Positions 3,629 to 43,445 of a DNA stretch of 64,000 nt are shown one piece after another. The notes under the pieces are model-generated. The model searched no databases, was not told where the DNA came from, and worked only from the letters and a program-made list of their open reading frames with translations. The first letter of the stretch is position 1, and every line of letters starts with the position of its first letter. The position numbers and the translations under genes were made by a program. Source of the stretch: a virus; IMG/VR virus record IMGVR_UViG_3300045988_137040; one strand, 5' to 3'.

Positions 3629-5041
3629 TTATGCTGCTTTAGCTTGTGTTCTCGATTTCTTCTCCAGCTTCACGAACTCCGCCTTGTTGTCCGTGATAAG
3701 CTTCCGTATCTCCTTGTCACGCTCCGGCACCGCGTTGCAGGCGGCACGGCACTGCACGATAGTGTTCGATGCCATGTTGTACTCGATGGTGGCCAAACGC
3801 TTGCCGTTGTCGTCCTTGGCAGAGAGGATAAGACTTTCGGGGTGGGTAAAATAATTCCAATAGCCCATGCGGTACACGCAGTGGTGCATGTGCTCGGCTT
3901 CTTCCTTGAACTCGTCAACGCTTTGCAGCGGACGGATAGTAAGGTTCGTGGAAGTCAAGTCGATTGTCAGCATCTTGCCCATGTGCTCGGGATAGTGTTG
4001 CGCTGCCTCGGCCTCCCGCTTGGCACGCTTAGCGCACTCCGCATTGTAGAGTATCATGTCTTGCCTCCGTCGCTCAGCCGCCATAGCCTGTAGTCTGGCT
4101 TCGGCAATTTCGTCGATACGCCTCTTGCGCTTCAGCAACATGTCATGCAGGGCGTGCAGATTGTCGGGACACACAAACTTAGGATTGTGGATGTCCATGT
4201 GCAGGAACGTCAGCAGATAGAGCGTGTCAAGCCATAGCGAAGGGTCGTCGATATGATATTTATGTCGGATGCAAATCTTCACGGCCGCCTCCCCACCATG
4301 GGGCAGACGGGTTCGGTTACGCACAAGATGGTCGAAGAGCGGTGTCTGAGAAGCAGACAGCATCGTCTCAGCGATAGGATAGGCTATCACACGGATGCAG
4401 CTGGTGTTATAGTCGTACTTGTCCATCAGTCCCGGCACGTCCTTGTACTGCCACTGCTTAGTGAGCGATTTTATCTCATAGTTCCACACATAGAGATTCT
4501 TCCGCATCATGGAGCCCCAACCCATGCAGTTAGGTGACAACTCCCGGCGAAGTATCAATGGTGAGGACTTGCTGAAGGCGTCATACGCATAGGACATAAC
4601 ATTTACAGTACGCTCATATACCTTGCGCTCTCCCGTAGGAGCATACATGATGCGCTCAATCTCCCACGCATGCACCTGCGCTGCCTTGCCATATTGCAGC
4701 TTACGCTCCACGCGGACATAGCGCACCAACTGAATGTCACGCTTAGCCTCGAAGATAGCAATATCACGAAGCTCGGTATCCACTCGGCGGCGATTTAGCT
4801 CCACCGTCTTTTTCTCCGTCCACTTGGCATGGCACTGAGGACATTCGTGCTGGCCGATAGGGTTGATAGAGCAACCGCACTCGGTGCAGAAGTAAACCAG
4901 CTCGCCACGCAACACCCTCGAAGCAAGACCGGGCTTGAACAGTTTACGATAGAGGCGGTGGGTCTCCGTCTTGCCGGGTTCGTCATGCAGACGCTTGTTG
5001 ATAGCGGCGCAGCGTCTGCCAAATTCTGTCACTCGTTTCAT
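3629..5041 (-). CDS. pcfJ: PcfJ-like protein
   Basis: C-terminal FKEEAEHMHHCVYRMGYWNY ... RLATIEY ... IVQCRAACN matches the PcfJ domain signature. The start overlaps the stop of the PcfK-like gene by 4 nt, as in pcfK-pcfJ pairs of Bacteroides conjugative elements. Confidence 0.75.
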   Translation of the reverse strand: MKRVTEFGRRCAAINKRLHDEPGKTETHRLYRKLFKPGLASRVLRGELVYFCTECGCSINPIGQHECPQCHAKWTEKKTVELNRRRVDTELRDIAIFEAKRDIQLVRYVRVERKLQYGKAAQVHAWEIERIMYAPTGERKVYERTVNVMSYAYDAFSKSSPLILRRELSPNCMGWGSMMRKNLYVWNYEIKSLTKQWQYKDVPGLMDKYDYNTSCIRVIAYPIAETMLSASQTPLFDHLVRNRTRLPHGGEAAVKICIRHKYHIDDPSLWLDTLYLLTFLHMDIHNPKFVCPDNLHALHDMLLKRKRRIDEIAEARLQAMAAERRRQDMILYNAECAKRAKREAEAAQHYPEHMGKMLTIDLTSTNLTIRPLQSVDEFKEEAEHMHHCVYRMGYWNYFTHPESLILSAKDDNGKRLATIEYNMASNTIVQCRAACNAVPERDKEIRKLITDNKAEFVKLEKKSRTQAKAA

Positions 5042-5442
5042 TTCTTTTCCTCCTGCTTTAAGTCCTCGTCCGTTTCGTCATAGTAGTGTACGGCCATGCT
5101 GTAGATTACCTCTGGAGAGCGGAAGATGCCCACGGCAGACTTGCCTTTGCGGTTAGCCTTGGCCACCTTCAGCATCTTGCCGAAGATGTATTCACAGCAT
5201 CCGTCGATGCTCTTTCCGGGTGCTGCAAGTTTCTCGATGATGTCGGGACGGGAATACAGATAACCCTCGATAGCCTCCTTGAACTCCTTGGGGATGACAT
5301 AGCTCGCACCGCCCTCGCTCTTTTTGGTATCGGCGTGGGCCTTGGAAGTACGCTTAGACTCGCTCTTAGGCTGAGCCTCTTGTTCACGCTGCTGCTTCAG
5401 TTCCTCGGCAGCGGCTTTGATAGCTGATAAATCAATAGCCAT
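5038..5442 (-). CDS. pcfK: PcfK-like protein
   Basis: FKEAIEGYL....GKSIDGCCEYIFGKM...VIYSMAVHYYDE matches the PcfK-like family pattern. It sits immediately upstream of PcfJ. Confidence 0.7.
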   Translation of the reverse strand: MAIDLSAIKAAAEELKQQREQEAQPKSESKRTSKAHADTKKSEGGASYVIPKEFKEAIEGYLYSRPDIIEKLAAPGKSIDGCCEYIFGKMLKVAKANRKGKSAVGIFRSPEVIYSMAVHYYDETDEDLKQEEKK

Positions 5443-5477
5443 AATTGCTTGAAATTTGAAAGTTGTTATTGTGTGTT

Positions 5478-5682
5478 GATCGCTAACGCTCCCATGATTT
5501 AGTGGTCGCTACACTCGAAATGAAACGTAAAATTATCCGTAAAATTAAATTTAGAATTATCCTGCGCAACCTGCAACGAGCATGGTATGCGATAGCTAAT
5601 TTTACGTTTAATTCTAAAGTTAATTTTACGTTCCATTTCAAGCCGCGAAGCGGCGACCGAAAAAGAAGAGCGCGTAGCGCCC
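5478..5682. repeat. composite hairpin repeat, copy B
   Basis: Same architecture as copy A: GATCGCTAACGCTCC module, a TGGTCGC...GGCGACCG closing stem, and arms with three 12-bp modules each (CGTAAAATTA, CGTAAAATTA, TTTAGAATTA). Confidence 0.85.
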
Positions 5683-8110: not shown

Positions 8111-8338
8111 TTATTTTTTGAATGGATATTTATATAATCCCAGTAAAACGAACCACGAGACAGCGCAGCTTATTACACAGCCCAATGGCAAAAAGGCCAG
8201 GCACCACGCGCCCTTGATTGATAGCTCGTCCTCTATCCAATGGCACACCAGCGCACCCACATAGAGCGAGCAGAGACCTATTACCATCATAGTTGCAATG
8301 AATGATACCATGGATACGATTGATAAAAACTTCTTCAT
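8111..8338 (-). CDS. small membrane protein (75 aa)
   Basis: Two long hydrophobic segments (IVSMVSFIATMMVIGLCSLYVGALV; AWCLAFLPLGCVISCAVSWFVLLGL). Confidence 0.5.
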   Translation of the reverse strand: MKKFLSIVSMVSFIATMMVIGLCSLYVGALVCHWIEDELSIKGAWCLAFLPLGCVISCAVSWFVLLGLYKYPFKK

Positions 8339-8356
8339 TGTTTTGTCCTCCGAAAA

Positions 8357-8779
8357 TTAAAAAATTCTACTTTTGCAAACACAGGTAACACGGCTACCTG
8401 CAAATCTCTTCACCACGATACGACGGGCAACAGTGCCCATCTTTTCGCTTGATACTTTGTTTTTGGCCTTCTTTGGCTGACGCACCCCCTGCCCATAGAA
8501 GAACATCTGTTTGGTGCTCTCTTTGCGCATAGGCTCCGGCATCGTCTCACGGCGCACCGCCCGACGGCTGCCCTCCAGAGAAACGCCATGCTCACCCCGA
8601 CGGATAGCACGACGCTGCTCTCTCTCACGATAGGCACGCAAACGCTCTCTATTCGCTTTGCGCTGCTCTTTCCATGCAAGGCTTTTTGATAAGCGGATAG
8701 CCTCGTTACGCTCTTTCTTTTCCTCACGCTCTACCCACTCCGTGGGCAGGATAGCGCACAGGTCTGATAATGTTGTCAT
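8357..8779 (-). CDS. hypothetical highly basic protein (140 aa)
   Basis: Start set at the ATG at 8779 (MTTLSDL...). The longer ORF would overlap the upstream gene and element R2. Rich in Arg and Lys. Confidence 0.5.
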   Translation of the reverse strand: MTTLSDLCAILPTEWVEREEKKERNEAIRLSKSLAWKEQRKANRERLRAYREREQRRAIRRGEHGVSLEGSRRAVRRETMPEPMRKESTKQMFFYGQGVRQPKKAKNKVSSEKMGTVARRIVVKRFAGSRVTCVCKSRIF

Positions 8780-14662: not shown

Positions 14663-16582
14663 TCAGCTTTGCATTACCAGGTTTTTGAATCTCCCTCTCA
14701 GTCTTCCTCCTACTTTCCTTTCTCCCTCGGCTCCCATCTTGACACCGATAACGAGATCGTCGAAGGCATCGGTGATGTCGGTACGTGTACGTGGGTCACC
14801 GGCTACGCCGTCGGCACTCTTGTATTTCTCCAGGCTTTTATCCTTTTGGAAGTTGTTGAGCACGCCTGCGTTGTTGATAGCGGTAAGGAGATACTGGCAT
14901 CGTCCGCTCTCCTTACAGATGTAAACGCTCGGGGAAGTCTGGAAGGAGAAGACATCGCAGAACAATTGCCACTTGCGTTCATGACGCCACACGCTGAACT
15001 CCCCACGTGTGACTTTCCATCCATAGCTCTCCAGCTCCAAAACCATAACGTTGTCAAAGCGACTATCTTCAGAGCCTTCTACAGCGTATGCCGTAGCTCC
15101 ACCTTGCTTGATGGTCTGCGTGTAATAGAAGATGACCTCCCCTGCCCCACCAGCCGCGCTGTTTCTTCTACGGAGGTACGGACGGTAGTAATTCGTAAAC
15201 TCTCTCACGAGGCCACGCAACCGCACCTCGCCCTGCACGAAAAACTCATTCATGACGAGAAGGCTCGGCTTACCTTGATAGTTGACAGTCTGCCCTACCA
15301 CCATGCAGCTCATGTCGTGGCCAGCGTCGATGGCGATACGTAATGGCTCGTCATAGCGCAAATCGAGGTCGCAAGAGCAATCCTCTCCCGCGCTCTGCAT
15401 GGCGTCCATGTCAAGTGTCATATATTCAACATCGGTAGGCCACCGTTGCGCGTCGAGGAAACGTCCCTTTGTCTTATGGCTGAACTTGTCGAGGATAAGA
15501 TCCGTACAGTCGGCACTCTCATAGGTGTTAAGCTCTTCGCTGAACTGGCAGTAGAAACCATCCGAAGCCTTGCCAGGCGGCTGACCGAGTATCTGCAGGC
15601 GGAACATCAGGTCTGGCAATTCTCGCTTCATGTCGCGCAGCCACGCCTCGCCACCAAGCATGGCGATGTTCTCAATGCTGCTGAACTGCCAAAAGACTTC
15701 AGACTTGGAACGTAAAAGATTGAGTTTGCGCAGGTAGTTGTCGTTACGTGACAAGGCAATGGCGGTCTTCGGGCTATGCTTCTCCAGGTATTTGAGTTCC
15801 GCGAGCATCTCGGCAATCTGTGCGTTGACGTCTTTAGTCTCATAGTCTTTTTCTTTCTCCCACTCGCATTGTTTCTGCGTCAGTCCCGCGTCGCTGACCC
15901 ATAACTGACTGCAATAGTAAGGATTGATTTTAGGGTCTGTGCCGTAGCCCCACCGCTTGACTTCTGCCTTGCGTGCCGACAACGGCATGAAATCGCCACG
16001 CAGGGTAGGCAATACCTCCTCCTTAACCCTTTGCCACGGGAGGTATTTCGTCTCGTCGCCGATAAGGAAAGCGAGGTTCAGACCGTTCGAGCTTCCCTTG
16101 ACTGCCATGGAGAGCATCTGCACGACCACGCCATTGCTGAAGTGGACACAGTTTTCCCACACTCTCGGCTTGGCAAGAGGTACGTCCCAATGGAGCTTGG
16201 CGGGTGCCTGGCCAAGAAAATAAAATCCCTCGAAGCCTAACTGGTTGACAACCTTTAGCGCGTTGGGCATGGTACGGGTGTAAAGCTGTTTAGCGCTCGC
16301 CCCAACAAAACCACCCATCTGGCGAGGCATGCCGAGGACGCATTTCATCATGTGGCAACCTATATAAGAGGTCTTGCCAAAACCACGCGCGGCGCGTACT
16401 TTCGTGTTCCTCGCGCCAAAGTTGTAGACGTCAAGCTGGCCACGATGCATGTAGATTTTATGTACGCCGTCGCCGACAATATCCACCTCGCCACCGTCTT
16501 GCCCCTGCTCCTCCATGCCGGGGAGCATACGAGCTTCAAGCTTGTCACTGCTCCTGCCTACGTTCGTCCCTACTCTCGTCAT
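14663..16582 (-). CDS. terL: terminase large subunit
   Basis: N-terminal ATPase Walker A-like AARGFGKTS, Walker B-like LIGDETKY, and a C-terminal nuclease-like acidic motif (RIAIDAGHD). The size is typical. An alternative start at 16528 is possible. Confidence 0.75.
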   Translation of the reverse strand: MTRVGTNVGRSSDKLEARMLPGMEEQGQDGGEVDIVGDGVHKIYMHRGQLDVYNFGARNTKVRAARGFGKTSYIGCHMMKCVLGMPRQMGGFVGASAKQLYTRTMPNALKVVNQLGFEGFYFLGQAPAKLHWDVPLAKPRVWENCVHFSNGVVVQMLSMAVKGSSNGLNLAFLIGDETKYLPWQRVKEEVLPTLRGDFMPLSARKAEVKRWGYGTDPKINPYYCSQLWVSDAGLTQKQCEWEKEKDYETKDVNAQIAEMLAELKYLEKHSPKTAIALSRNDNYLRKLNLLRSKSEVFWQFSSIENIAMLGGEAWLRDMKRELPDLMFRLQILGQPPGKASDGFYCQFSEELNTYESADCTDLILDKFSHKTKGRFLDAQRWPTDVEYMTLDMDAMQSAGEDCSCDLDLRYDEPLRIAIDAGHDMSCMVVGQTVNYQGKPSLLVMNEFFVQGEVRLRGLVREFTNYYRPYLRRRNSAAGGAGEVIFYYTQTIKQGGATAYAVEGSEDSRFDNVMVLELESYGWKVTRGEFSVWRHERKWQLFCDVFSFQTSPSVYICKESGRCQYLLTAINNAGVLNNFQKDKSLEKYKSADGVAGDPRTRTDITDAFDDLVIGVKMGAEGERKVGGRLRGRFKNLVMQS

Positions 16583-17240
16583 CGTTAATCACTTCACCTG
16601 GTTTATCCTTAACCTCGCCGCTACGCGCCTCCATCTTGGCAACTTCATCTTCCACCATCTTGCGCTTGTCGTCCACATAAGCACCATATTTCGCGGCAAT
16701 GCGCTTCGTCTCTTCGTCGTCATAGTTCTCCTTTGTCTCGTCCACCTCCTTGATGTTCGTGACGACCACGGACGGGAGAAAAGAAACCTTATTGATGTCA
16801 GTCTTGTTGTCCTCTGGCTTGTCGAGACCCGCCACTTCAAAGAGACGCTTGCCACCCAGGTTGAGGGCGTTCACGTTGTCAGTCTCCATGCCAATACGCA
16901 ACATCTTCTCCGCGGCGACCTGCACTTTGACCTTAGCCTCGTTACGGCTCATCGGGCTTACGGTGTCACGTATAAACTTAAAGAGCAACACGTCTTTGGT
17001 CAAAGCGTGAGTCTCGGACGGCGCGTCGGCATAGGCGTGACTGTTCTTGATAATCTGCCGAAGCAATCCTTTATAGTCTACGGAGAACGGGTTGCGCAGC
17101 CACTGCCAATAAACGTGATCCACTCTCGCCAACCGTCGTTTCTGTTCTGCACGGAGGGAAAGGTCATCGATTGGCACGCCACTTTGGAAATGGAGCAATG
17201 AGCTTTTCATGAGCTCTGCTGATAATGATGATTCGTACAT
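16545..17240 (-). CDS. putative small terminase subunit or DNA-packaging accessory protein (231 aa)
   Basis: Assigned by position only. It lies immediately upstream of terL and overlaps it. I moved the start to the ATG at 17240 because the longer ORF reads through the octamer-repeat palindrome. Confidence 0.35.
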   Translation of the reverse strand: MYESSLSAELMKSSLLHFQSGVPIDDLSLRAEQKRRLARVDHVYWQWLRNPFSVDYKGLLRQIIKNSHAYADAPSETHALTKDVLLFKFIRDTVSPMSRNEAKVKVQVAAEKMLRIGMETDNVNALNLGGKRLFEVAGLDKPEDNKTDINKVSFLPSVVVTNIKEVDETKENYDDEETKRIAAKYGAYVDDKRKMVEDEVAKMEARSGEVKDKPGEVINDDESRDERRQEQ

Positions 17241-17268
17241 GATAATTTGAAATTTTATGATTATTGTT

Positions 17269-17347
17269 TTGCGGTTTCGCAAACATGTGCTTTTGTGCAA
17301 CCGCATGGTCGTGCAACCGCACGGTTGCACGACCATGCGGTTATGCA
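17269..17347. repeat. 8-bp-register GGTT/AACC box array O1, containing a 22-bp-arm palindrome
   Basis: caaccgca tggtcgtg caaccgca cggttgca cgaccatg cggttatg. Positions 17297-17346 form a near-perfect inverted repeat. Confidence 0.85.
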
Positions 17348-17349
17348 AA

Positions 17350-17703
17350 TTAATCACCTTCTTGCGATGGCTTCAAGGAGAGAGGTTTCGCTTCTTGCCA
17401 TCCTGTCTCCTCCACATATCCGTCTTTCTCTTTTAAGTACATGACACGCTGACCATTTAACCAGTGCCACACGAACCCTTGTTCCAGAAGCATCCTCTCT
17501 GCTTCCGGCCAAGGGTCTCCGATGTCAATGGTGGCTCGCATGCCCATGGCGTCTCGAAGTTGGCCTACATCCATGACCTCTACACCGAGGTTGAAATTAG
17601 GCCACGGCATCCAGCGACTCACAAATGAGAAGACCATCGTCTCTATGTTGCTTTTTGCGGAGTCAATATCCGTCACATACGTTGGTTTCTTGTCATTACT
17701 CAT
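17350..17703 (-). CDS. hypothetical protein (117 aa)
   Basis: ATG-initiated ORF between two octamer arrays in the terminase block. Confidence 0.55.
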   Translation of the reverse strand: MSNDKKPTYVTDIDSAKSNIETMVFSFVSRWMPWPNFNLGVEVMDVGQLRDAMGMRATIDIGDPWPEAERMLLEQGFVWHWLNGQRVMYLKEKDGYVEETGWQEAKPLSLKPSQEGD

Positions 17704-17726
17704 GATTTTCCCTTTTGATTTTATGT

Positions 17727-17790
17727 TACACGGTTGTGCGGTTACACGACTATGCAGCTATGCGGCTATGCGGTTACACGACTATGCGAC
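17727..17790. repeat. 8-bp-register array O2
   Basis: cggttgtg cggttaca cgactatg cagctatg cggctatg cggttaca cgactatg cgactcga. Includes an 18-bp direct repeat. Confidence 0.85.
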
Positions 17791-17800
17791 TCGAATAAGG

Positions 17801-18310
17801 CTAAACGTATAAGCCCTTGTCAACACATAGGTTCAACGGCTCTTCTCTTGTGAACTGTACGAGGACGGCAAACCAGCCGTTTTCCAAAGGTCCAACGGAT
17901 TGATAAGAAACGTCGGTATCGTCGAGGGCGATACGCGCGTAGTCGCCGTCCATCTTCCCCTCGTTTATTTCTTTGTCGTGCTTGTCGAGGAGCCACGCCA
18001 CGAAGTTGCGGGCATGATGCAACGCCTCTTGCTTTGCCACGGCAGCGTCATTGCCGTCTGCCATCTTGTTTGCTCGGACGAAGAAATAAACCGGGTAATT
18101 GAACTCTGGCCTGCGGATTGAGCCCCTGTCGCTCTCTATGGTGCTCTCCATCACGACACATGGCGACTGCATGTTACTTATGCCTTTGGCCATCTCAACC
18201 ACTCCCTTCCACGAGTCGGTGAACATGAACCGTATGTTCCCATTGTTCGGATTATGCAGCATATACATGTACCGTGAACACCAATGCTCTACTATTGAAT
18301 AGAATGTCAT
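17801..18310 (-). CDS. hypothetical protein (169 aa)
   Basis: ATG-initiated ORF in the terminase block. No motif recognised. Confidence 0.55.
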   Translation of the reverse strand: MTFYSIVEHWCSRYMYMLHNPNNGNIRFMFTDSWKGVVEMAKGISNMQSPCVVMESTIESDRGSIRRPEFNYPVYFFVRANKMADGNDAAVAKQEALHHARNFVAWLLDKHDKEINEGKMDGDYARIALDDTDVSYQSVGPLENGWFAVLVQFTREEPLNLCVDKGLYV

Positions 18311-18335
18311 GTCTCTTAAAATCTATGTTCTTGAT

Positions 18336-18372
18336 TATGCAACCGCATGGTTGTGCGGTTGGGCGGTTGCTT
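18336..18372. repeat. 8-bp-register array O3
   Basis: atgcaaccgcatggttgtgcggttgggcggttgc, with GGTT boxes every 8 bp. Confidence 0.8.
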
Positions 18373-18378
18373 GATTTG

Positions 18379-19440
18379 TTACTTGGGGATTCTGATTTTA
18401 TAAAACGCCGCAGTCTTTTTCATGCTCTCAGAAAGTTCCACGCCGAGCCCTATCAGTTCTTTAGCGTTCTCTTTCCATTGTTTCTTATGTTCAGGCGTGC
18501 CGGCAGGTCTTGGGTCCCGCAGCCACTTTTGGAGGTATTTAACACGTGCGGCTTTTTCCTCGTCGGTATATATCTTCGATGGCGCGCGTTTCTTTTTGTG
18601 TCTTGTTTGACGTTCACCATCCTGTCCCTTGTCAATACTCGGAGTTCGTGTCTCATCCGCCACCTTGCCGTTCTCGTCAAGGACATGCGCCATGCCTAAA
18701 TCATCCACGACAACACGTCCGGTGCTCGCCACTTTATCCCATTCTTTATCGAGCTCCCTTCTGAGGTCACCAATTCCCTTGTCGAGCGCCACGGCAGTTT
18801 TAGCCCATCGCTCCCTTTCTGTAGCCGTGGCTCCAACGTCATCCATGAGCAACCGCATGTTTCCGCGAGCAGTTCCAAGGTCTTTCATCATCTGACCATA
18901 ATTAGCCGCACGCTTCCGCGTCTCCTCTGGTAACAAATGTGCGTATTGGTCAATATGCTTCGGGCGAGGGACAGCCGCCCCAACCTCAGTGACGACAGCG
19001 TTTATTTTTGCGGTTGTGCTGTCTTGCGGTTGCACGACCGTGCAACTTTGCGGTTGTGCAGCCAACGTGGTATCATGCCCTGGTGTTGGCTTTACTCCTG
19101 GTCTTTGCAGACATTGTGTGAGGACATCTATAATACGGTGTATGCTGCGCTTGGCAGCCTTGGTATAAATCATGGTGGGTAGCCACGTGTCGACAATTCC
19201 CGCAAAGGGAGTCATTAGGCGCACGCCCTCGTTGAAGGCGTCTTGGGCGTCGGTAGACCAGCCACCGCACACTTGCTCAACGCTCATTATCCTCGCCGAC
19301 GGTTCATTGGCTTTAGGCAAAAGGATATTGGCTTCCTGCTTCAGCCACTCCCCTACCCTCTTAGAGAGGTCTTGCTTTTCGCCTTCCGTCATGTTGCTCA
19401 CTCTTCTAAGCCACTCGTTAGACGCTATCCGGTATATCAT
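18379..19440 (-). CDS. hypothetical protein (353 aa), containing intragenic octamer array O4
   Basis: Continuous ORF. The C-terminal half is charged and helical. Confidence 0.55.
   Translation of the reverse strand: MIYRIASNEWLRRVSNMTEGEKQDLSKRVGEWLKQEANILLPKANEPSARIMSVEQVCGGWSTDAQDAFNEGVRLMTPFAGIVDTWLPTMIYTKAAKRSIHRIIDVLTQCLQRPGVKPTPGHDTTLAAQPQSCTVVQPQDSTTAKINAVVTEVGAAVPRPKHIDQYAHLLPEETRKRAANYGQMMKDLGTARGNMRLLMDDVGATATERERWAKTAVALDKGIGDLRRELDKEWDKVASTGRVVVDDLGMAHVLDENGKVADETRTPSIDKGQDGERQTRHKKKRAPSKIYTDEEKAARVKYLQKWLRDPRPAGTPEHKKQWKENAKELIGLGVELSESMKKTAAFYKIRIPK
19008..19062. repeat. 8-bp-register array O4, inside the 353-aa CDS
   Basis: cggttgtg ctgtcttg cggttgca cgaccgtg caactttg cggttgtg. 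On the minus strand it encodes ...AAQPQSCTVVQPQDSTT... Confidence 0.8.
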
Positions 19441-19540
19441 ATTGATAGTATATAATTGTTTTATGGGCTAAAGATAATACAGACGTGACAAGTAGGCAAG
19501 GGCAAGGGCAAGAGTTCTCATTATTAAAAATGTTTAATAT

Positions 19541-19688
19541 TATGCGGTTTTGCGGTCGCACGGTTGTGCGGTTGCAGAATTTTCAATAACTTTGCATCGC
19601 TACAACAAAACAAGACCGTTCGATTTTGTGGTTACACAGTCGCACAACCGCATAATTGCAGTAACTTGCGGTCGCACATCTGCGCATA
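19541..19688. promoter_or_regulatory. parA-upstream centromere/operator candidate (arrays O5a 19541-19580 and O5b 19626-19688 flanking a promoter)
   Basis: O5a: atgcggtt ttgcggtc gcacggtt gtgcggtt. O5b: cgattttg tggttaca cagtcgca caaccgca taattgca gtaacttg cggtcgca. Between them lies TTGT - 19 nt - TAacTTTG (19563-19594). Confidence 0.55.
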
Positions 19689-19714
19689 TTCATATTTTAT
19701 ATAAAGCTACATTT

Positions 19715-20581
19715 ATGAGTAAGGTAAAATCTACACATCTCCGGCACATAGTTGCCGTGAGCAACAACAAGGGTGGGGCAGGGAAGACCACCACGGTATT
19801 GAACCTCGCTGCGGCAATCGCGCGCAAAGGCTACCACGTGCTTGTCATCGACACTGACCCTCAATGCAACCTCTCGCTCTCTGTAGGATGGGACACGACA
19901 AGAGAGGGCACGCGAACCAAACCTGGCGAGCCGACTATCTTCAATGCGATATGCCTCGGACAGAACATCCCCGTCTATCGCAATGAGACAGGGTTGTACT
20001 ATACGCCGTCATCTCCGCGCATGGAAGACGCCGACATCCACTTGAACAGCTCTGAGGTGACAGACCCTGTGCGTGTGTTGAAGATGCTCTTCGCTGAACC
20101 TATAGACGACCACACGGGCGAGGGCTTGAAAGAGTGGGAAAGCAGCTTCGACTTCATCTTCATCGACACACAGCCTGCCATGAGCCGAGTCACGGTCAAC
20201 GTGATATGCGCGGCCACGGGTATCATCATACCAGTTGAACTGGAGCCGTTGGCCGTTGACGGCTATGTCAAGACCATCGGTAAAATCATGAAGATTAAAA
20301 AGGTGAGCAATCCATCCCTGCAAATCCACGGTATCCTGCTCACCAAGAAAGACCGACGACTGGTAAGCGCACGGAGTTTCGAGGAACAACTGCGTGAGGA
20401 GGGAGACGTTTTCGAGACGACCATCAGCCGCACCAACGATGTGCCCAACTCGCAAGACCGGGACTACGACGAACGGCCCGGTATCTGTCACGACATCTTC
20501 AGCTACCAAAAAGGCAGAGGACGTGCCAAGGAAGATTTCACCAACCTTGCCGAAGAGTATATCAAGAAGTGGGGAAAGTAA
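19715..20581 (+). CDS. parA: ParA/Soj-family partition ATPase
   Basis: Deviant Walker A VAVSNNKGGAGKTTT and VLVIDTDPQCNLS. The start is set at the ATG at 19715; the listed ORF begins at a TTG inside the repeat array. Confidence 0.85.
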   Translation: MSKVKSTHLRHIVAVSNNKGGAGKTTTVLNLAAAIARKGYHVLVIDTDPQCNLSLSVGWDTTREGTRTKPGEPTIFNAICLGQNIPVYRNETGLYYTPSSPRMEDADIHLNSSEVTDPVRVLKMLFAEPIDDHTGEGLKEWESSFDFIFIDTQPAMSRVTVNVICAATGIIIPVELEPLAVDGYVKTIGKIMKIKKVSNPSLQIHGILLTKKDRRLVSARSFEEQLREEGDVFETTISRTNDVPNSQDRDYDERPGICHDIFSYQKGRGRAKEDFTNLAEEYIKKWGK

Positions 20582-20740
20582 CACAACCGCACGACCATGC
20601 AACTGCATAACTGCAATAATATGCAACCACTTAACTACATAACCGCATAGTTGAGCAGTTGGGCAGTTACTAAAACACACGTATGTGCAACTATGTGGTT
20701 GCATAGTTGTGTGGTCGCACAGATAAGCAACCGCAAAAAA
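20581..20740. repeat. 8-bp-register array O6 (20 consecutive octamers) between parA and the small downstream gene
   Basis: acacAACC gcacGACC atgcAACT gcatAACT gcaaTAAT atgcAACC acttAACT acatAACC gcatAGTT gagcAGTT gggcAGTT ... atgtGGTT gcatAGTT gtgtGGTC ... aagcAACC. Box orientation flips midway. Confidence 0.85.
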
Positions 20741-20748
20741 CATAAGAT

Positions 20749-21123
20749 ATGAACAAGAAAGAAAAACCGCAGCGCAGATCGCTAAACGCAAGAATAGACG
20801 CAGAGTTGGCAAGCGCAGAAAACATACCGTTGGCAGGAATGACCAGAGAGCCAGCAAAACCAGTGAAAACTCCATCGCAGAGCTCAACTTTGGGGCGGGG
20901 TGGGGGAGAGCCTATAGCAACCAAGAAGGCAACGACCATCATGCCCAAGGATGTGTTCGTGGCCCTGCAACGCTATTGCATCAACAAGGACACGCCCAAG
21001 CACCGTGCGCTCTATTTCTTCATCCTTGACGGACTGCATGCCGCTGGGGAAATCAATGATGCCGACTATCAACGCTTCCGCGATATGGCCGAGCAGATAA
21101 CTACGACATACGAAAAGAAGTAA
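20749..21123 (+). CDS. putative centromere-binding protein (ParG/RHH-like, 124 aa)
   Basis: Position directly after parA. The N-terminal half looks basic and disordered. The C-terminal TTIMPKDVFVALQRYCINKD...LYFFILDGL is compatible with a ribbon-helix-helix fold. Inference only. Confidence 0.4.
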   Translation: MNKKEKPQRRSLNARIDAELASAENIPLAGMTREPAKPVKTPSQSSTLGRGGGEPIATKKATTIMPKDVFVALQRYCINKDTPKHRALYFFILDGLHAAGEINDADYQRFRDMAEQITTTYEKK

Positions 21124-21637: not shown

Positions 21638-21894
21638 TTTGGCACTCACATCTATAGCCGACACTTCCGTTTTTGTCGGGATTTTCAACTTGCTAAATAC
21701 TTCTAACTCAAAGGTTTACAAATTTAGCTATTTCTAATTATTCTTTGAAGTTACTAATTTGTCGGTAAAGCTATAAATCTGTCATCAAAGTTGTGTTTTT
21801 CCGACCGACCTAATTATTAGGCAGTTACGGCTATATATTTGGATTATACTATATCGACCACTCTATATATCAACAACTTATGGACTTTGCCAAA

Positions 21895-22284
21895 TTGAGG
21901 ACAGATTAACAGCTAAAAGAAAAAATCAAAAATACTCGATTCTTATTATATAATTATTGGTATAGATAGTATATAGTATATAAGGCTTTGTAACTTATTG
22001 ATAATCAAATAATAGCAAGGTGAATTGAGGACAGATTAATAGCTTTTTGAGGACAGATTAATAGGTTTCGGGGGACAGATTAATAGCTTTTTGAGGACGG
22101 ATTAATAGGTATTATCTATGAATTGAGGACAAATTAATAGCTTTGGAAACTCCGACAAATAGGTAACTCCATATTATTGAGGACAATTTTATAGCTTTAT
22201 CAATTATTTAAGGAGTGCTAAAATTCAAAACTATCTGAAAATAAACACGTAAAGCCTTGTGTAATTGAGGACAAATTTATAACT
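21895..22284 (+). promoter_or_regulatory. iteron-type replication origin (8 iterons plus an AT-rich unwinding region)
   Basis: Eight copies of about 20 bp, consensus TTGAGGACAGATTAATAGCT, at 21895, 22025, 22047, 22069, 22091, 22123, 22177 and 22265. The central four are spaced exactly 22 bp apart. A very AT-rich tract lies at about 21925-22015. The last iteron overlaps a TAacTTTG -7 box (22280-22287) upstream of rep. Confidence 0.85.
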
Positions 22285-22350
22285 TTGCCAACAAATGGTA
22301 AAAGACATGGCTACAACTGTCCGAGCTACCACACATTAAAAGCTACAAAC

Positions 22351-23562
22351 ATGGCAAGAAAATCACGAAAGGCTGAGCAGCTCAAGCAAGAGTTGTTGAG
22401 CACAGTGCAGCAGCAGGAGCTGATTACTCAGCCTGTTACCTTCGCTTACATCAAAGGTGAGATGTCAGTGATGCAGGCACGTATTCAGACAATCATCATG
22501 GAGAAGCTGCAACTGCGCATCGCAAAGTTCTTAAAGGAGAGGGCGCATGATGGCTTTGCTGGATGCTTATTCTCCGATGAAGATTTCGCCCCGCTCAAGG
22601 GGGAAAATGACAAGAGCAGGTATCTCACGTTCAGTGTGAAATACTCAGAGCTCGGCATACCGTCGGCAAATTACCGCTACGTCTCGGACGCTGCGAGAGC
22701 CATGCAGGGCTCTTTGGTATATGAAAAAAGCATTGTTGACGACGGAAAGACTTATAAGCGATATATCGTTGCTTTTCCCGTAGTCGATGTCCCGGACGAG
22801 AGCCTTGGAGAGCGACGCACTGACATCAAGCTCCACATGACAGAGAGCACTGCAAAATATCTCTTCCGTATTACGCCCTATCACCGATACCTTAAAGACG
22901 CGGTGTTTCTATTCAACAGCGGATATACGGGCAGGATATATCTGCTTATCAATGCCAATAAGCAGTTGGGTACATGGAATATTGACTACGACGAGCTGCG
23001 CAAGATACTCCTTACCACCTATGACAAAGAAAATGATAAATATGTCTGTGACAAATACCCTGATATTAGGGATTTCAAGCGCCGTGTCCTCGAACCGGCC
23101 CGCAAGGAAATCATGGAGGTCGCAAAACGTATTGACTGCACTTTCGACTACGAAATAAAAAAGAAGCGTGGCTCGAATGAGAACATCAAGATAGTTTTCC
23201 ATATCCACCTCACAGACCTCGGAAAGAACATCAAGCAGGGGCAGCTGGAAAGCCAGGAGGCCGTGACGCTGCGCAATGCGCTGATGAACCTGCATATCAC
23301 CATCACCGACGCAAACAGGTTGATGAAGCAAGTCTCCGCCGAGCAATATCCAGCTCTAACCAACAAGGCAAGAGAACTGATGAAATACTACCAAGACGTC
23401 AGAGAGGGGAGGGCAAAGGGAGTCTCAATCAAGGACTACCGAGCCCATGCCGTTAAGTCCCTTCAAAACATTATCTTAGGAAAAGGCAACTTCTTCAGCG
23501 AAGCCGTCGAGATAAATGACAAGCCTATTTCAGAACCCCAAAAATCATTAAACGAATGGTAA
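22351..23562 (+). CDS. rep: plasmid-type replication initiator (Rep_3/RepB-like, iteron-binding)
   Basis: Lies directly downstream of the iterons. NSGYTGRIYLLI......GTWNIDYDELRKIL.....YPDIRDFKRRVLEPARKEI matches the second winged-helix pattern of the Rep_3 family (S.Y.iRlYell...G...i...eLr..L....Y..f.dfkrrVlepa.kEi). Confidence 0.75.
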   Translation: MARKSRKAEQLKQELLSTVQQQELITQPVTFAYIKGEMSVMQARIQTIIMEKLQLRIAKFLKERAHDGFAGCLFSDEDFAPLKGENDKSRYLTFSVKYSELGIPSANYRYVSDAARAMQGSLVYEKSIVDDGKTYKRYIVAFPVVDVPDESLGERRTDIKLHMTESTAKYLFRITPYHRYLKDAVFLFNSGYTGRIYLLINANKQLGTWNIDYDELRKILLTTYDKENDKYVCDKYPDIRDFKRRVLEPARKEIMEVAKRIDCTFDYEIKKKRGSNENIKIVFHIHLTDLGKNIKQGQLESQEAVTLRNALMNLHITITDANRLMKQVSAEQYPALTNKARELMKYYQDVREGRAKGVSIKDYRAHAVKSLQNIILGKGNFFSEAVEINDKPISEPQKSLNEW

Positions 23563-24434: not shown

Positions 24435-24437
24435 TAT

Positions 24438-24543
24438 GGGCGCCGCTTCGCAGCTTGAAATTAAACGTAAAATTATCCGTAAAATTAAACTTAAAATTAT
24501 TCAACCAACCAAGGCTTGCTGAGAGATAGGGTAGTGGGCGCCC
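24438..24543. repeat. composite repeat, copy C (half-size variant)
   Basis: GGGCGCC...GGCGCCC closing stem and GCTTGAAATT, followed by four direct 12-bp modules (aattaaacgtaa aattatccgtaa aattaaacttaa aattattc). Located at the convergent junction between the replication module and the late block. Confidence 0.75.
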
Positions 24544-24586
24544 AAAGGAAAGGAATTGATGCGACCAGTATCAATTCCACGTCTCT

Positions 24587-25504
24587 CTATGTTCCCATGC
24601 ACACCGTGCGTTTTGCGGTTGTGCGACCGCATAGCTTTGCGGTTATCGTCTCACGCACGAGTTTAGCGCGTGATTCCCAATCCGCGATATTCTCGTTGTC
24701 ATTGAGACAGACGACGCCAGCCATCGGGTCGTTGATGAGCGCAGGGAGGTCGGCGGTGGGCGTGTCCTCGTCGGCGTACTGCATACGCGGGGAATGGTCG
24801 ATGTCAAGACCCGCGAAGTGCTGATAGAGCAAGTAGATGTACTGGTTGAACGAATGCTCGGTGCGAACGAGAGGACTCATCCACCGCTCTATCTCCTCGC
24901 CATGCCGTTGCCAAACCGCCTCGCAAGCAGAGCGGAGGATGGGCGCATAGGAATGGCCCGTCGTCAGCCAGGTGCGCACATAGTGTCTACCAAAAGGTCT
25001 GCCAATCATGTTCTGCTGATTCAGACATTTTCGATGAAAGATATTCGGCACATCGGGAAAGAGTTTTTCTTTGAAGTGGACACACGGACGACCGTCAAGA
25101 AAGAAGTCGGACGGCTGTAAAGGTGAGAGCGGGAACATATCGTCGTTGGCATAGACAAACCTTTCCGACAGCCCCGGTATGCGGCCTAAGAACATCTCAA
25201 TGCAGGGCGAGGAAAAGCAAGGAAGATACTTCTCCGGAATGAAGTCACGATGAAAGACGATATGCACCTTATCGTAGCGTGACATCCACGGCTGCACCTG
25301 ACTCTCACGGGCGAGAAGGATATGGATGGTACGGAGCCATGGCATATACTTCATGCAACAACGAACCAACAACTCTTCCGTCCCCCATGAACGGAAGCGG
25401 ACGTTGGCACAAGCGTCATCGCCGTGGTAACGGCGATAATCGCTGAGCCAGTCCGCATCCTGGGGAAACACCATCGGAACTACTAAATCAATATTTTTCT
25501 CCAT
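24587..25504 (-). CDS. Stealth-family protein (putative sugar-1-phosphate transferase, capsule-modification type)
   Basis: IDLVVPMVFPQDADW (CR1-like). RFRSWGTEELLVRCCMKYMPWLRTIHIL and FIPEKYLPCFSSPCIEMFLGRIPGLSERFVYANDDMF match my recollection of Stealth CR2/CR3 (RF.d..ELrYSlRS....PW.r.i.iv ... lP.FnS.aIE..l..IpgLsE.F.Y.NDD.f). Confidence 0.55.
   Translation of the reverse strand: MEKNIDLVVPMVFPQDADWLSDYRRYHGDDACANVRFRSWGTEELLVRCCMKYMPWLRTIHILLARESQVQPWMSRYDKVHIVFHRDFIPEKYLPCFSSPCIEMFLGRIPGLSERFVYANDDMFPLSPLQPSDFFLDGRPCVHFKEKLFPDVPNIFHRKCLNQQNMIGRPFGRHYVRTWLTTGHSYAPILRSACEAVWQRHGEEIERWMSPLVRTEHSFNQYIYLLYQHFAGLDIDHSPRMQYADEDTPTADLPALINDPMAGVVCLNDNENIADWESRAKLVRETITAKLCGRTTAKRTVCMGT
24605..24647. 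repeat. 8-bp-register array O7, at the 3' end of the Stealth gene
   Basis: cgttttg cggttgtg cgaccgca tagctttg cggttatc. Confidence 0.75.
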
Positions 25505-40329: not shown

Positions 40330-42690
40330 TTATTCAAACTGCACCGTCCAGCCCTTGTCCGTAGCTATCTTCAGGTCGTCGTCCGATATGGAGTCTGAAC
40401 CCTTGCCGCCAAGGCTCACCGGCTTGTTGTTAACGCCGAGAGTCAGCGTCTTGGCCTCCGTCACCATCTCCAAACCGTTGATGACGACCATGCAGCTGTC
40501 ACGGGTCATGCGGCTTGACACTGCCCTGAAGTCGTTACGTATGCCCCTCAGCGTACCTGTAAGCTCCCTGGGGTTAGTTCCCCACTCGAAGAGGTCGATA
40601 CTGTCGCACGGCGAAAAGTCTATAAGTCCTATCCTCAGCGTCTTGAGCCGGTTTAAGCCAGTGAAACATCCACCCCAGTCATTGCATTTCGTGATATTGC
40701 AGCTGCTGAGGTCTATTTCCCGAAGGCTCGCGCAGTCTCGGAAGCATAATCTCATATTCGTCACGTTTCCTAACGTCCACTTGCTCGTATCAAGAGTCAG
40801 AAGAGAGCTGCATGCGAAGAAGCATTCAAACATATTCGTCACGTTCGCAAGCGTCCATTTGCTCGTGTCGAGAGACTGAAGTTTCTCGCACTTACCGAGG
40901 CATCTTGACATATTCGTCACGTTCGCAAGCGTCCACTTGCTCGTGTCAAGAGTCAGAAGATTCGCGCAGCCATTGAAGCAACTTTCCATATTCGTCACGT
41001 TTCCTAACGTCCACTTGCTCGTGTCAAGAGACATAAGATTCGCGCAGCCATTGAAGCAACTTTCCATATTCGTCACGTTTCCTAACGTCCACTTGCTCGT
41101 GTCAAGAGACATAAGAAGTCTGCAATCGTAGAAGCATCGAAGCATATTCGTCACGTTCGCAAGCATCATATTTTCGGGGAGCGTGAGCGTCTTGAGGCCC
41201 GAAGCATAATATAAGAAATAAGTCATATCAGTAGCTGCCTCGAAGTCCCAGCCGCTGAGGTCAAGACTTCTGATTAATATGTTTCTGCGATAACCTATCA
41301 CCATGCAATTCCCTTCTCCCGGCATGATGCTCCGCTTCCCTGCGTAATAGACAGCAGCTGCGTTCGGACCAAGCTGTTCCGTGTTCGGCATGCTCTTGAC
41401 ATTTCCATCATTAGCGTCGAGATACACGAACTCGTCCGTGCCCTTGATGGTGTTCTTTATCGCCTCCACAAGCTTGACATCCACCTCGAGGTGGTTGTCC
41501 TTGATATACTGCAACAGCTCTTCGAGATGCGCCGCCTTCTCCGTGAATCCCTGCTCCCTTTCGCCCTCAGCCGTCACCCTTTCGCCCTCAGCCGTCACCC
41601 TTTCGCCCTCAGCTGTCACCCTTTCGCCCTCTGCTGTCACCCTTGCGTTCTCTGCTGTTACACGGGCGTTCTCGGCTATTACGCGTCCCTGCTCGGCAGC
41701 CAATCTTTGCCCCTCGCTGTTCTCGCGCACCTGTTCGGCTTGCACTCTCTCCGCCTCACTGCTTGCGCGTGTCTTCTCGGCTTCCTGCCTTGCCTCTTCC
41801 GCCTCAGTTCTCGCGTTTTCAGCCGTCACCCTTTCGCTCTCTGCCGTCGCCCTTGCGTTCTCAGCGTCAGCCCTCGCGTCCTCTGCCGTAACACGGGCGT
41901 TTTCAGCCGTCACCCTTGCGTTCTCTGCGTCAGCCCTCGCGCCCTCTGCCGTAACACGGACGTTTTCTGTCTCTACGCGTCCCTGCTCTGCCGTCACCCT
42001 TGTGTTTTCTGCGTCAACCCTTGCGCTCTCAGCCGTCACACGGACGGCTTCTGCCTCTACGCGAGCGTTCTCGGCGTCAGCCCTCGCGTTCTCGGCTGAC
42101 TCGCGCACCTGTTCTGCTTGCACTCTTTCCGCCTCAGTGCTTGCGCGTGTAAGCTCAGCTTGCACCCTTGCCTCTTCGCTCTTCGCCCTTAGTTCTTCAC
42201 TTTTTACCCTTCCCTCTTCACTCGCCTTTATCGTGTCGCTCAGCTCGCTCATCACCTTATTCTGCGCCTGCGCCTCCTTTACCAGCGCTTCCAGCTCCCT
42301 GTCAGGCGGCAGCACCACCACAGCCGTGTCCATCTCCACCGAGTTCTCGCCCTCGTCGGTCTCGCCCAGTTCCGTGTCGGCGTCAGCGTTCCTGTCAACG
42401 ATAGCCACCTGCTCATACTCGTTGCTACGCCAATCATTCCCGAATATCTTTCCGCGCACCTCCAGCGCGTAAGTGCCCAGTGGTATCCGGTCTCCCTCGA
42501 CCCTCGCCACAATCACGTTGTCCTCTTTCGCGTCAATTGTGTGAGCCAGCTCCAGCCGCCTGTACGCCGAGCACAACCTCACCACGATGTCGGTACAGCC
42601 CGGCAACGGGAACGCCACCTTCTCGCCCTCAACTATCTTCACCACGGGTATCCTCATTGTGAAGTCATTACCTCTCACTATCCTTTTCAT
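40330..42690 (-). CDS. receptor-binding tail fiber with heptad-repeat stalk and C-terminal DUF285/BspA-like leucine-rich repeats (786 aa)
   Basis: About 245 aa of AENARVT/GERVTAE heptads, then seven or more 23-aa units of the type LDTSKWTLGNVTNMxxCFxGCxxLxS. Confidence 0.65.
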   Translation of the reverse strand: MKRIVRGNDFTMRIPVVKIVEGEKVAFPLPGCTDIVVRLCSAYRRLELAHTIDAKEDNVIVARVEGDRIPLGTYALEVRGKIFGNDWRSNEYEQVAIVDRNADADTELGETDEGENSVEMDTAVVVLPPDRELEALVKEAQAQNKVMSELSDTIKASEEGRVKSEELRAKSEEARVQAELTRASTEAERVQAEQVRESAENARADAENARVEAEAVRVTAESARVDAENTRVTAEQGRVETENVRVTAEGARADAENARVTAENARVTAEDARADAENARATAESERVTAENARTEAEEARQEAEKTRASSEAERVQAEQVRENSEGQRLAAEQGRVIAENARVTAENARVTAEGERVTAEGERVTAEGERVTAEGEREQGFTEKAAHLEELLQYIKDNHLEVDVKLVEAIKNTIKGTDEFVYLDANDGNVKSMPNTEQLGPNAAAVYYAGKRSIMPGEGNCMVIGYRRNILIRSLDLSGWDFEAATDMTYFLYYASGLKTLTLPENMMLANVTNMLRCFYDCRLLMSLDTSKWTLGNVTNMESCFNGCANLMSLDTSKWTLGNVTNMESCFNGCANLLTLDTSKWTLANVTNMSRCLGKCEKLQSLDTSKWTLANVTNMFECFFACSSLLTLDTSKWTLGNVTNMRLCFRDCASLREIDLSSCNITKCNDWGGCFTGLNRLKTLRIGLIDFSPCDSIDLFEWGTNPRELTGTLRGIRNDFRAVSSRMTRDSCMVVINGLEMVTEAKTLTLGVNNKPVSLGGKGSDSISDDDLKIATDKGWTVQFE
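40740..41170 (-). repeat. 69-bp tandem repeats encoding the LRR units
   Basis: Units begin catattcgtcacgtt...gtccacttgctcgtgtcaagag. Two adjacent units (about 40986-41054 and 41055-41123) appear identical. Confidence 0.8.
41505..42243 (-). repeat. 21-bp (heptad) tandem repeat tract
   Basis: For example, four consecutive near-perfect copies of ccctttcgccctcagccgtca at about 41556-41645. Degenerate copies continue across the whole tract. Confidence 0.8.
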
Positions 42691-43357: not shown

Positions 43358-43445
43358 ACCTTACTTGTTATTGTCGTTATCGTTCTTTTCGTTCTCACGA
43401 TTCTATATTCTTCACTCTTCGTTCTTCACTCTAAGGGGGAGGGGT

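Follow-up and report, generated by a model that had tools for sequence, protein, structure and literature searches.

We found that a stretch of phage DNA, 64 kb of the IMG/VR virus record IMGVR_UViG_3300045988_137040 (the whole of which we call the window), carries arrays of a degenerate octamer on both sides of a parA gene and in a neighbouring operon of packaging genes. The best reading of the sequence is that the arrays flanking parA serve as the centromere and operator of a type-Ib-like partition system with a new family of small protein. This protein, of 124 amino acids (aa), is encoded just downstream of parA and likely binds the octamer arrays. It is reasonably probable that the arrays as a whole are cooperative binding sites for this small protein in a type-Ib-like system. 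An effect of the arrays on the expression of the packaging genes is possible but doubtful.

The unit is RYRCGRYT (for example, ATGCGGTT and ACACGACT), present in both orientations and in a strict 8-bp register. It consists of two 4-bp blocks, one of RYRY type (GCAC, ATGC, GTGC) and one of RRYY type. The RRYY block sets the orientation: GGTT, GACT and GGCT are forward; AACC, AGTC and AACT are reverse. The largest arrays flank parA. The packaging operon runs leftward (14663-19440, minus strand) in the order p353, p169, p117, p231 and the large terminase gene (TerL), and carries the extra arrays. By our count there are nine arrays, eight of them between 17270 and 20740 and the ninth at 24606-24645. 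In addition to three gaps in this operon, octamers occur in five further places: within the p353 open reading frame (ORF), at two sites upstream of parA, in the spacer between parA and the 124-aa gene, and at 24606-24645 (Table 1). The other intergenic gaps of the window are without octamer arrays.

Both the word and the register are concentrated in this region. TGCGGTT occurs 27 times in the window, compared to 9.7 +/- 3.2 times in dinucleotide shuffles (0 of 100 shuffles reached 27), and 19 of the 27 copies fall within 3.5 kb (17270-20771). Autocorrelation of the purine/pyrimidine pattern at a lag of 8 (threshold, at least 35 of 40 matches) gave nine segments, eight of them within 17278-20738; the ninth is a polypyrimidine tract. 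Lags of 7, 9, 10 and 11 gave low-complexity tracts only. Core hexamers in the same orientation and no more than 120 bp apart were spaced by a multiple of 8 bp in 58 of 76 pairs inside the region and in 13 of 75 pairs outside, and pairs in opposite orientation had one fixed offset in common.

We compared the window to related loci. A search of viral contigs with ParA gave 20 syntenic loci on contigs of 72-145 kb, and further loci came from a protein collection, GTDB genomes and metagenomes, for ~30 syntenic relatives altogether. (A single-sequence search with p169 gave one locus, L032, on a contig already sampled as L014.) The order in the relatives is TerL-p231-p117-p169-p353, then the divergent ParA and small protein, then Rep-DnaC-p192. 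Every relative has an array in 8-bp register directly after the parA stop codon, and most have one upstream as well. The register is conserved and the unit sequence is not. Loci encoding a protein of the 124-aa family (p124) have TGCGGTTG-like units, and 12 of 13 are enriched for the words ACCGCA/AACCGC/GCACAA. Loci whose ParA is 45-49% identical encode another small protein (MAKKDKF..., with C-terminal RFMRLPNPQIPLxEYNLVSxYC...) and have TTAAGCAT/ATAAGCAG units; 7 of 8 loci of this second family (RFMRLPNP...) are enriched for TAAGCA/AAGCAA. L016, the sole variant with RLTHLPNPWIS at that position, has ACAAACGT units. The two small-protein families align over their C-terminal domains and share one hydrophobic pattern there.

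The locus L014 is particularly informative. It is the closest relative of the window in structural genes and in the proteins of the TerL block and of replication (p169 is 78% identical and DnaC 66%). Its ParA, by contrast, has just 45% identity, and L014 carries the other small-protein family together with the other unit. That is, there has been a cassette swap, and because of this combination the par gene pair and its repeats move together. Our main argument rests on these comparisons: because the position of the array is conserved and the unit co-varies with the protein family, the small protein is the most plausible binder of the arrays. Because the arrays in the packaging operon share the unit family and register of those flanking parA, the 124-aa protein is the best candidate to bind them too. 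A sequence-only reading of this DNA had named the partition protein as a possible binder, and the common unit and register, the conserved position, and the unit that follows the protein family all support that suggestion.

In the 124-aa protein, a basic N-terminal tail (KKEKPQRRSLNARIDAEL) is followed by a variable linker of low complexity and then by a C-terminal domain that is conserved, as judged by alignment of the family. The family has an N-terminal motif, KKExPRRRSLNxRIDAELA, and an invariant segment, TKKATTIMPKE. In AlphaFold2 models, the predicted local distance difference test score (pLDDT) was low at residues 1-55 and high at residues 60-115, and the C-terminal domain (pLDDT 82.6) was an extended segment (the putative ribbon KKATTIMP) followed by three helices. 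The compact Foldseek matches to this domain were nearly all ribbon-helix-helix (RHH) proteins, with E-values of 0.3-4, none significant. These included Arc (probability 0.91; TM-score normalised by target, 0.73), CopA-SO (0.76), CdbA, AtaR, SegB and Reg576; all had non-significant E-values, and the RHH matches spanned TM-scores of 0.5-0.76 normalised by target. With the full-length model, ribosomal helical proteins dominated the matches. Neither the protein nor its family had a match in Pfam (E up to 10), PHROG or PDB sequence profiles, the protein has no ParB/SopB domain, and the second small-protein family gave nothing meaningful in Pfam (E up to 10). We regard an RHH fold as a prediction that is somewhat more likely than not to hold. 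The p124 family is tiny, with 14 clusters (E <= 1e-3) in a set of 1.84 billion representatives. In 2 of the 14 (P0125 and P0128), the C-terminal domain (KKATTIMPKEVF...) is fused to an unrelated N-terminal domain of ~190-250 aa. Occurrence in such fusions suggests that the C-terminal domain is an autonomous, portable module predicted to bind DNA.

ParA matched Pfam AAA_31 (3.6e-34) and CbiA, the PHROG ParA-like family (5e-46), and the structures of Soj (1wcv), ParF (4dzz) and delta (2oze) in the PDB. The sequence anatomy of the window has the features of type Ib systems: a ParA lacking a helix-turn-helix (HTH) domain, a small protein made of tail, linker and C-terminal domain, and repeat arrays by the operon.

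The arrays around parA have the layout of a regulated partition operon. TAnnTTTG is the -7 consensus of Bacteroides promoters. The operator-like array upstream of parA stops 4 bp short of such a box (TAACTTTG), and GGTTG of its penultimate unit lies at -33, with a spacer of 20 nt. The order array, TAnnTTTG, GCTACAACA is also found in relatives of both cassette types. To judge from the sequence, the layout is that of an autoregulatory operator. The array in the parA leader separates segments that are contiguous in L014 and L016. The main array, downstream of parA, opens with 8 reverse units (AACY GCAY), and most of the others are forward, so that roughly half point each way; this array is the probable centromere. 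There is no promoter consensus between this 20-unit array and the start codon of the 124-aa gene. The 124-aa protein is probably made from a transcript that crosses its own predicted binding array. The promoter of p353 is ~30 bp from the operator-like array. The divergent p353 and parA promoters are conserved in L012, L014, L016, L019, L025 and L027: the leftward promoter of the group is TATCTTTR with a conserved CAAGGGCA -33 region (GGCAAG occurs three times in the window), and the rightward promoter is TAnnTTTG followed by GCTACAACA.

We propose that each dimer of the 124-aa protein would read one octamer in either orientation, probably by an RHH-like beta ribbon formed by KKATTIMP, and that adjacent dimers would line an array every 8 bp. 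Contact with ParA would be made through the basic N-terminal tail. The operator-like array over the parA promoter would be the autoregulatory operator, and the centromere would be the array of ~20 units that separates parA from the 124-aa gene. The arrays in the three gaps, in the p353 linker and at 24.6 kb would be supernumerary copies, gained only in this strain-level lineage. They would widen the protein-coated region by ~35 units, into the adjacent packaging operon, where they could add to the centromere and also impede read-through from the p353 promoter as roadblocks.

The sequence-only reading had described the three gaps in the terminase block as octamers, and this was confirmed: the units are contiguous and in a single register. 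It had also noted a palindrome and a direct repeat. Both exist, with other dimensions. The palindrome, in gap 1, has arms of 28 nt rather than 22 bp (89% complementary and 2 nt apart) and folds to a perfect 20-bp stem. The direct repeat, in gap 2, is an exact one of 19 bp rather than 18 (TGCGGTTACACGACTATGC at 17737 and 17769). The units of gap 2 are, in order, ACACGGTT GTGCGGTT ACACGACT ATGCAGCT ATGCGGCT ATGCGGTT ACACGACT ATGCGACT. In gaps 1 and 2, GGTT-type units alternate with GACY-type units, giving a superperiod of 16 bp (Tandem Repeats Finder). The claim that arrays lie between every gene of the block was wrong, as p231 overlaps TerL and there is no array past TerL. The spurious ORF peptides with HGCAV/CGCT motifs are real by-products of the arrays, and octamer arrays thereby flag places where automatic gene callers yield spurious ORFs. 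The array inside p353 falls in a hypervariable linker (residues ~120-165), which in the window lineage encodes the octamers (AAQPQSCTVVQPQDSTT). Homologues of p353 have an AT-hook-like motif, KRKRGRP, in the same linker. Because gaps 1-3 have no strict TAnnTTTG -7 box on the gene strand, the gap arrays appear to sit within the p353-to-TerL transcription unit and not on obvious promoters.

The arrays in the packaging block are particular to one lineage and turn over within it. An exact-word scan of metagenomes gave five more strain-level relatives (96-100% protein identity), which with L024 make seven genomes. All seven keep arrays at all sites. Gap 2 is 97, 89 or 65 bp long, corresponding to losses of 1 and 4 units, and the spacer with the array downstream of parA is 167 or 175 bp, a difference of one 8-bp unit. 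That is, these indels (8, 8 and 32 bp) keep the register. Gap 3 is conserved in the seven strains, with 4 substitutions, all transitions. The array inside p353 is kept in all strains, with an AACT/GGCT polymorphism, and the outlying array at 24.6 kb is conserved in strain L037. Polymorphic sites made up 12 of 182 positions in the arrays versus 66 of 533 fourfold-degenerate sites of flanking genes (p = 0.038), and the ratio of transitions to transversions was 11:1 in the arrays versus 38:24 at fourfold sites (p = 0.05). These values are suggestive, if marginally so, of constraint on the purine/pyrimidine pattern of the arrays. In L033, an element of the IS200/IS605 insertion sequence family (3700-5420; a TnpB-like ORF of 432 aa and subterminal hairpins) separates the p231 leader from the gap 1 array.

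Outside this lineage, relatives with the same cassette (L001-L010, L025, L027, L030 and L031) have par-type arrays around parA only. Conservation of the arrays in related phages, to which the sequence-only reading had looked for a test, was thus found for the par-flanking arrays, kept in every relative, but not for the gap arrays, which are in one strain-level lineage. An exact 18-mer from gap 2 was not found in viral contigs; a 14-mer operator word gave mostly chance matches there and was not used. The window has ~35 par-proximal units, and the relatives have 26-50. We had considered that the arrays in the TerL block compensate for a low par-proximal load, and rejected this: the load of the window already equals that of the relatives. 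In the corresponding gaps of the TerL block, relatives have other tandem units of 7-9 bp that adjoin start codons and are A/C-rich on the coding strand. Such units are found upstream of the p231, p117 and p169 homologues in L001, L004, L008, L010, L020 and L027, and also at 43358-43445 in the window and at 12245-12312 in L014. The types (AACTTGA, CAATTTAC, TAATTCGT, CTGTCCGT, TCTTCAC and AACTCAAY) differ from one relative to another and are A/C- or purine-rich on the coding strand. They may be leaders that lack structure and are prone to slippage, or sites for other regulators.

The gap arrays could add to the centromere sites, could be roadblocks to transcription along the lines that the sequence-only reading proposed, or could be by-products of repeat turnover that the phage tolerates. 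It is tempting to think that the 124-aa protein doubles as a silencer of the packaging operon, coating the arrays within the transcript (three gaps and linker) and blocking read-through; we view this as tentative and on the unlikely side. If so, a fall in partition-protein levels from those of the plasmid state would derepress terminase expression, and the arrays would be a fast-evolving addressing system, expandable unit by unit, that colonises intergenic sites and even coding linkers.

Several observations weigh against our reading of the octamers as cooperative sites for the small protein of a type-Ib-like partition system. The RHH assignment is weak: Foldseek E-values were 0.3-4, and neither Pfam nor PDB sequences gave a match. 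Two to three protein states, and not many independent switches, underlie the change of unit with protein family. A second p124-like protein is present in L014 and L016 (hhalign probability 91%; at 11575-12250 in L014 and 11526-11864 in L016), and L014 has a second long array in 8-bp register (TGCTTGAA / CAAGCTAA / CAAGGCAT) between its two small genes; because of this paralogue, more than one array-binding protein is possible in the group. No relative outside the lineage, even with the same cassette, has arrays of this type in the TerL block, and for that reason they do not belong to the conserved system. The phage can do without the gap 1 palindrome: L024 lacks 66 bp that include it, and it is present in five other strains. 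The polymorphism tests are marginally significant only, and whole-unit indels are also expected from slippage of tandem repeats without selection.

The most serious alternative concerns the arrays away from parA. The gap, p353-linker and 24.6-kb arrays could be neutral or selfish by-products, with par repeats seeded by gene conversion or microhomology from the centromere, expanded by replication slippage, and subject to incidental binding at most. This is consistent with their confinement to one strain-level lineage, with the polymorphic number of units and the loss of the palindrome in L024, and with internal duplications private to each array (a 32-bp repeat in gap 2 and the palindrome in gap 1). 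One array, moreover, is in the hypervariable p353 linker, which is tolerant of any sequence, and the par-proximal arrays alone (~35 units) already match those of relatives (26-50). All the same, we regard it as unlikely: 7 of 7 strains keep arrays at all sites, polymorphism in the arrays is below that of fourfold sites and transition-biased (marginally), and four to five independent insertions in 2.4 kb on one side of par are many for drift alone.

Across the cassette swap in L014, the unit follows the family of the adjacent small protein, and p353 is homologous in both cassette types though the units differ. Both observations speak against the notion that another DNA-binding protein (a phage repressor or late regulator, p353, or a host factor) reads the octamers in a regulatory circuit unrelated to partition. 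We consider that quite unlikely, even though the 124-aa protein has no recognised DNA-binding domain, p353 is poorly conserved, is always adjacent and divergent to parA, and has homologues with the AT-hook-like KRKRGRP, and some relatives have a second p124-like protein.

The sequence-only reading had offered RNA hairpins as an alternative. It is very improbable that the arrays act in this way, in termination, processing or stabilisation between packaging cistrons. Folding of the coding strand gave z = -8.1 for the 20-bp stem of gap 1 (due to the palindrome), -4.2 for an 8-bp stem in gap 3 and -3.7 for the array downstream of parA. But gap 2 is unstructured (z = +0.19), and the gap 1 hairpin is deleted in the near-identical L024. 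No U-tract follows any stem, terminator-like sites numbered 4 compared to 4.7 expected, and an Rfam search gave no relevant match. (A scan for sigma-70 promoters and terminators was at chance level and is uninformative for a Bacteroidota host.) What the arrays have in common is the octamer and its register, not pairing, and the hairpins look like a by-product of inverted unit orientation. Known pac sites often hold short repeated boxes and the arrays adjoin p231 and TerL, but a pac site bound by the small terminase is hardly probable and was rejected on comparative grounds, as relatives with homologous p231 and TerL (50-68% identity) have no arrays in the block, and the units are densest around parA and change with the par cassette, not with the terminase.

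We return to sites for the small partition protein, and compare the locus to known systems. The ParF-ParG system of TP228, with its parH centromere and O_F operator, also has a small Walker ParA, a small protein with a basic flexible N-terminal tail and a folded C-terminal domain, and an 8-bp register. ParG combines flexible tails bearing an arginine-finger-like motif with an RHH domain, and is operator-binding repressor and centromere binder in one; its sites are 4-bp boxes with 4-bp spacers, direct and inverted, each box bound by one dimer in a cooperative coating (PMC3130281). There are differences. In sequence the 124-aa protein is not similar to ParG, and it lacks a Pfam match. The window units are G+C-rich RYRCGRYT, whereas ParG boxes are ACTC with AT-rich spacers. 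The main array in the window lies between parA and the binding-protein gene, with extra arrays in a phage packaging operon, and the carrier of the system is a Prevotellaceae phage rather than an enterobacterial plasmid.

The locus resembles delta/omega of pSM19035 in having several separate arrays at different operons and an array between the ATPase and binding-protein genes. Omega, a single RHH protein, acts as global repressor as well as centromere binder; its heptad arrays, of mixed orientation, lie upstream of different operons, and function requires a run of at least 4 units (PMC9499535, PMC2441792). The omega unit is 7 bp (WATCACW) and that in the window is 8 bp; our scan at lag 7 gave nothing beyond low-complexity tracts. 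There is no homology and no Pfam match to omega, and omega arrays overlap promoters, in contrast to the gap arrays here, which have no canonical promoter on the gene strand. By analogy, the 8-bp grammar is most like ParG/parH and the layout in multiple arrays is most like omega/parS of pSM19035.

The sequence-only reading had likened the arrays to the scattered centromere sites of the phage-plasmid N15, which is linear, and as an analogy this is apt. Ravin, Rech and Lane are said to have reported in 2008 that Sop affects N15 late gene expression. N15 SopAB has four dispersed inverted-repeat (IR) centromere sites (IR1-4), outside the partition operon and some of them in phage gene regions (PMC7205306). 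In N15, however, the protein is of the type Ia ParB/SopB HTH class and the sites are single palindromes spread genome-wide, whereas here there is a small non-ParB protein, a ParA without the type Ia N-terminal domain, and multi-unit arrays all within ~7 kb of parA.

Two regulators that are not partition proteins also bear comparison. MetJ has a ribbon, KKITVSIP, and its dimers bind tandem 8-bp met-boxes, AGACGTCT (PMC3413123). The ribbon resembles the putative ribbon KKATTIMP, and the met-box resembles units such as ACACGACT. In contrast to the system here, MetJ, a chromosomal repressor of metabolism, works with a corepressor and 2-5 boxes, and no homology to it was detected here. We take the resemblance as a lead on binding geometry, not as evidence of membership. 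In cluster A mycobacteriophages, stoperators are many repressor sites in short intergenic gaps of operons that block elongating RNA polymerase. They are single asymmetric sites of 13 bp, oriented with transcription, found genome-wide and bound by the immunity repressor. That is, they are neither arrays nor sites of a partition protein, and are alike in their intergenic placement in operons.

To our knowledge, there has been almost no study of partition in Bacteroidota phages and plasmids. The locus described here is a compact testable system, with a ParA, an orphan family of small proteins and a clear 8-bp repeat grammar. Nature has supplied variants for dissection: a cassette swap that comes with another unit, single units gained or lost, and extra arrays confined to one lineage. 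If the arrays do repress packaging, this would be a second case, after N15, of a phage-plasmid that has wired its segregation machinery into lytic-gene control, with a different protein class and in a different phylum. The arrays and protein could also become orthogonal operator/repressor or DNA-labelling parts for Prevotella and Bacteroides.

Table 1. Features of the par locus and its surroundings in the window, in order of position.
Feature	Position	Strand	Remarks
Large terminase (TerL)	14663-16582	-	639 aa; weak PHROG match
p231	16545-17240	-	Probable small terminase; overlaps TerL
Gap 1 array	17270-17349		p117/p231 gap; isolated unit at 17270-17277 and a palindrome of 3 reverse and 3-4 forward units
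p117	17350-17703	-	Packaging operon gene
Gap 2 array	17727-17790		p169/p117 gap; 8 forward units
p169	17801-18310	-	Packaging operon gene
Gap 3 array	18335-18372		p353/p169 gap; ~4.5 units, one reverse then three forward
p353	18379-19440	-	353-aa ORF; first in leftward order, divergent from parA
p353-internal array	19009-19064		7 units; codes residues 126-144 of the hypervariable linker
Leftward p353 promoter	19469-19512	-	Probable; TATCTTTA with CAAGGGCA as -33 region
Operator-like array	19543-19582		4-5 forward units; upstream of parA, overlaps the -33 promoter region
parA -7 box	19587-19594	+	TAACTTTG; Bacteroidota-type TAnnTTTG
parA leader array	19631-19694		~8 units, mixed orientation
parA	19715-20581	+	288 aa; deviant Walker A NNKGGAGKTT; no N-terminal HTH domain
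Main array	20583-20740		~20 units across the 167-bp parA/124-aa spacer
124-aa gene	20749-21123	+	Candidate centromere-binding protein; 167 bp downstream of parA
22-bp iterons	21890-22300 (tandem part 22025-22108)		TTGAGGACAGATTAATAGCTTT; 3.8 tandem copies and at least 5 dispersed copies
Outlying array	24606-24645		5 units; 3' end of a 305-aa ORF, downstream of the DnaC-like gene

The gene order of the TerL-p353 block is kept in the ~30 relatives. Divergent from p353 are, in order, parA, the 124-aa gene, a lipoprotein-like gene, 22-bp iterons, a Rep3-type initiator gene and a DnaC-like loader. The rest of the window encodes a tape-measure protein of 2983 aa, virion proteins and a primase. Because tape-measure and virion genes stand beside a plasmid-type replication and partition module, the element, a large tailed phage, is a candidate phage-plasmid. 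The iterons sit upstream of, and overlap the start of, the Rep3-type initiator gene (22285-23562), with the DnaC-like loader next, and this is probably a plasmid-type origin. We considered whether the octamers are themselves Rep iterons and rejected this: the repeats beside the Rep3-type gene, at 21.9-22.3 kb, are unrelated 22-bp units. In phage and plasmid collections, megablast with the 14-25 kb region found no close deposited relative and indeed no match. There are two clues to the host. Two contigs of metagenome-assembled genomes that carry relatives were binned to Prevotellaceae, and the parA promoter fits the Bacteroidota TAnnTTTG consensus.

The window has no tRNA gene. In L003, L004 and L016, tRNA-like sequences (GGTCGAACCC...) lie upstream of the p169 homologue, in the p169/p353 gap. 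A second intergenic repeat element, unrelated to the octamers, occurs in the window at 2521-2762, 24435-24586 and 5443-5519, and also in L014 (~8330-8460). It consists of GGTCGC...CTTGAAAT, then 12-bp repeats like AAATTAAACGTA, then GATAGGGTA; the copy at 2521-2762 is an imperfect palindrome of ~240 bp. The element has no Rfam match. Finally, a virion structural gene of 786 aa (40330-42690) has long in-frame tandem repeats at 40753-41162 and 41556-42093, with units of 78 bp and 21/42/63 bp.

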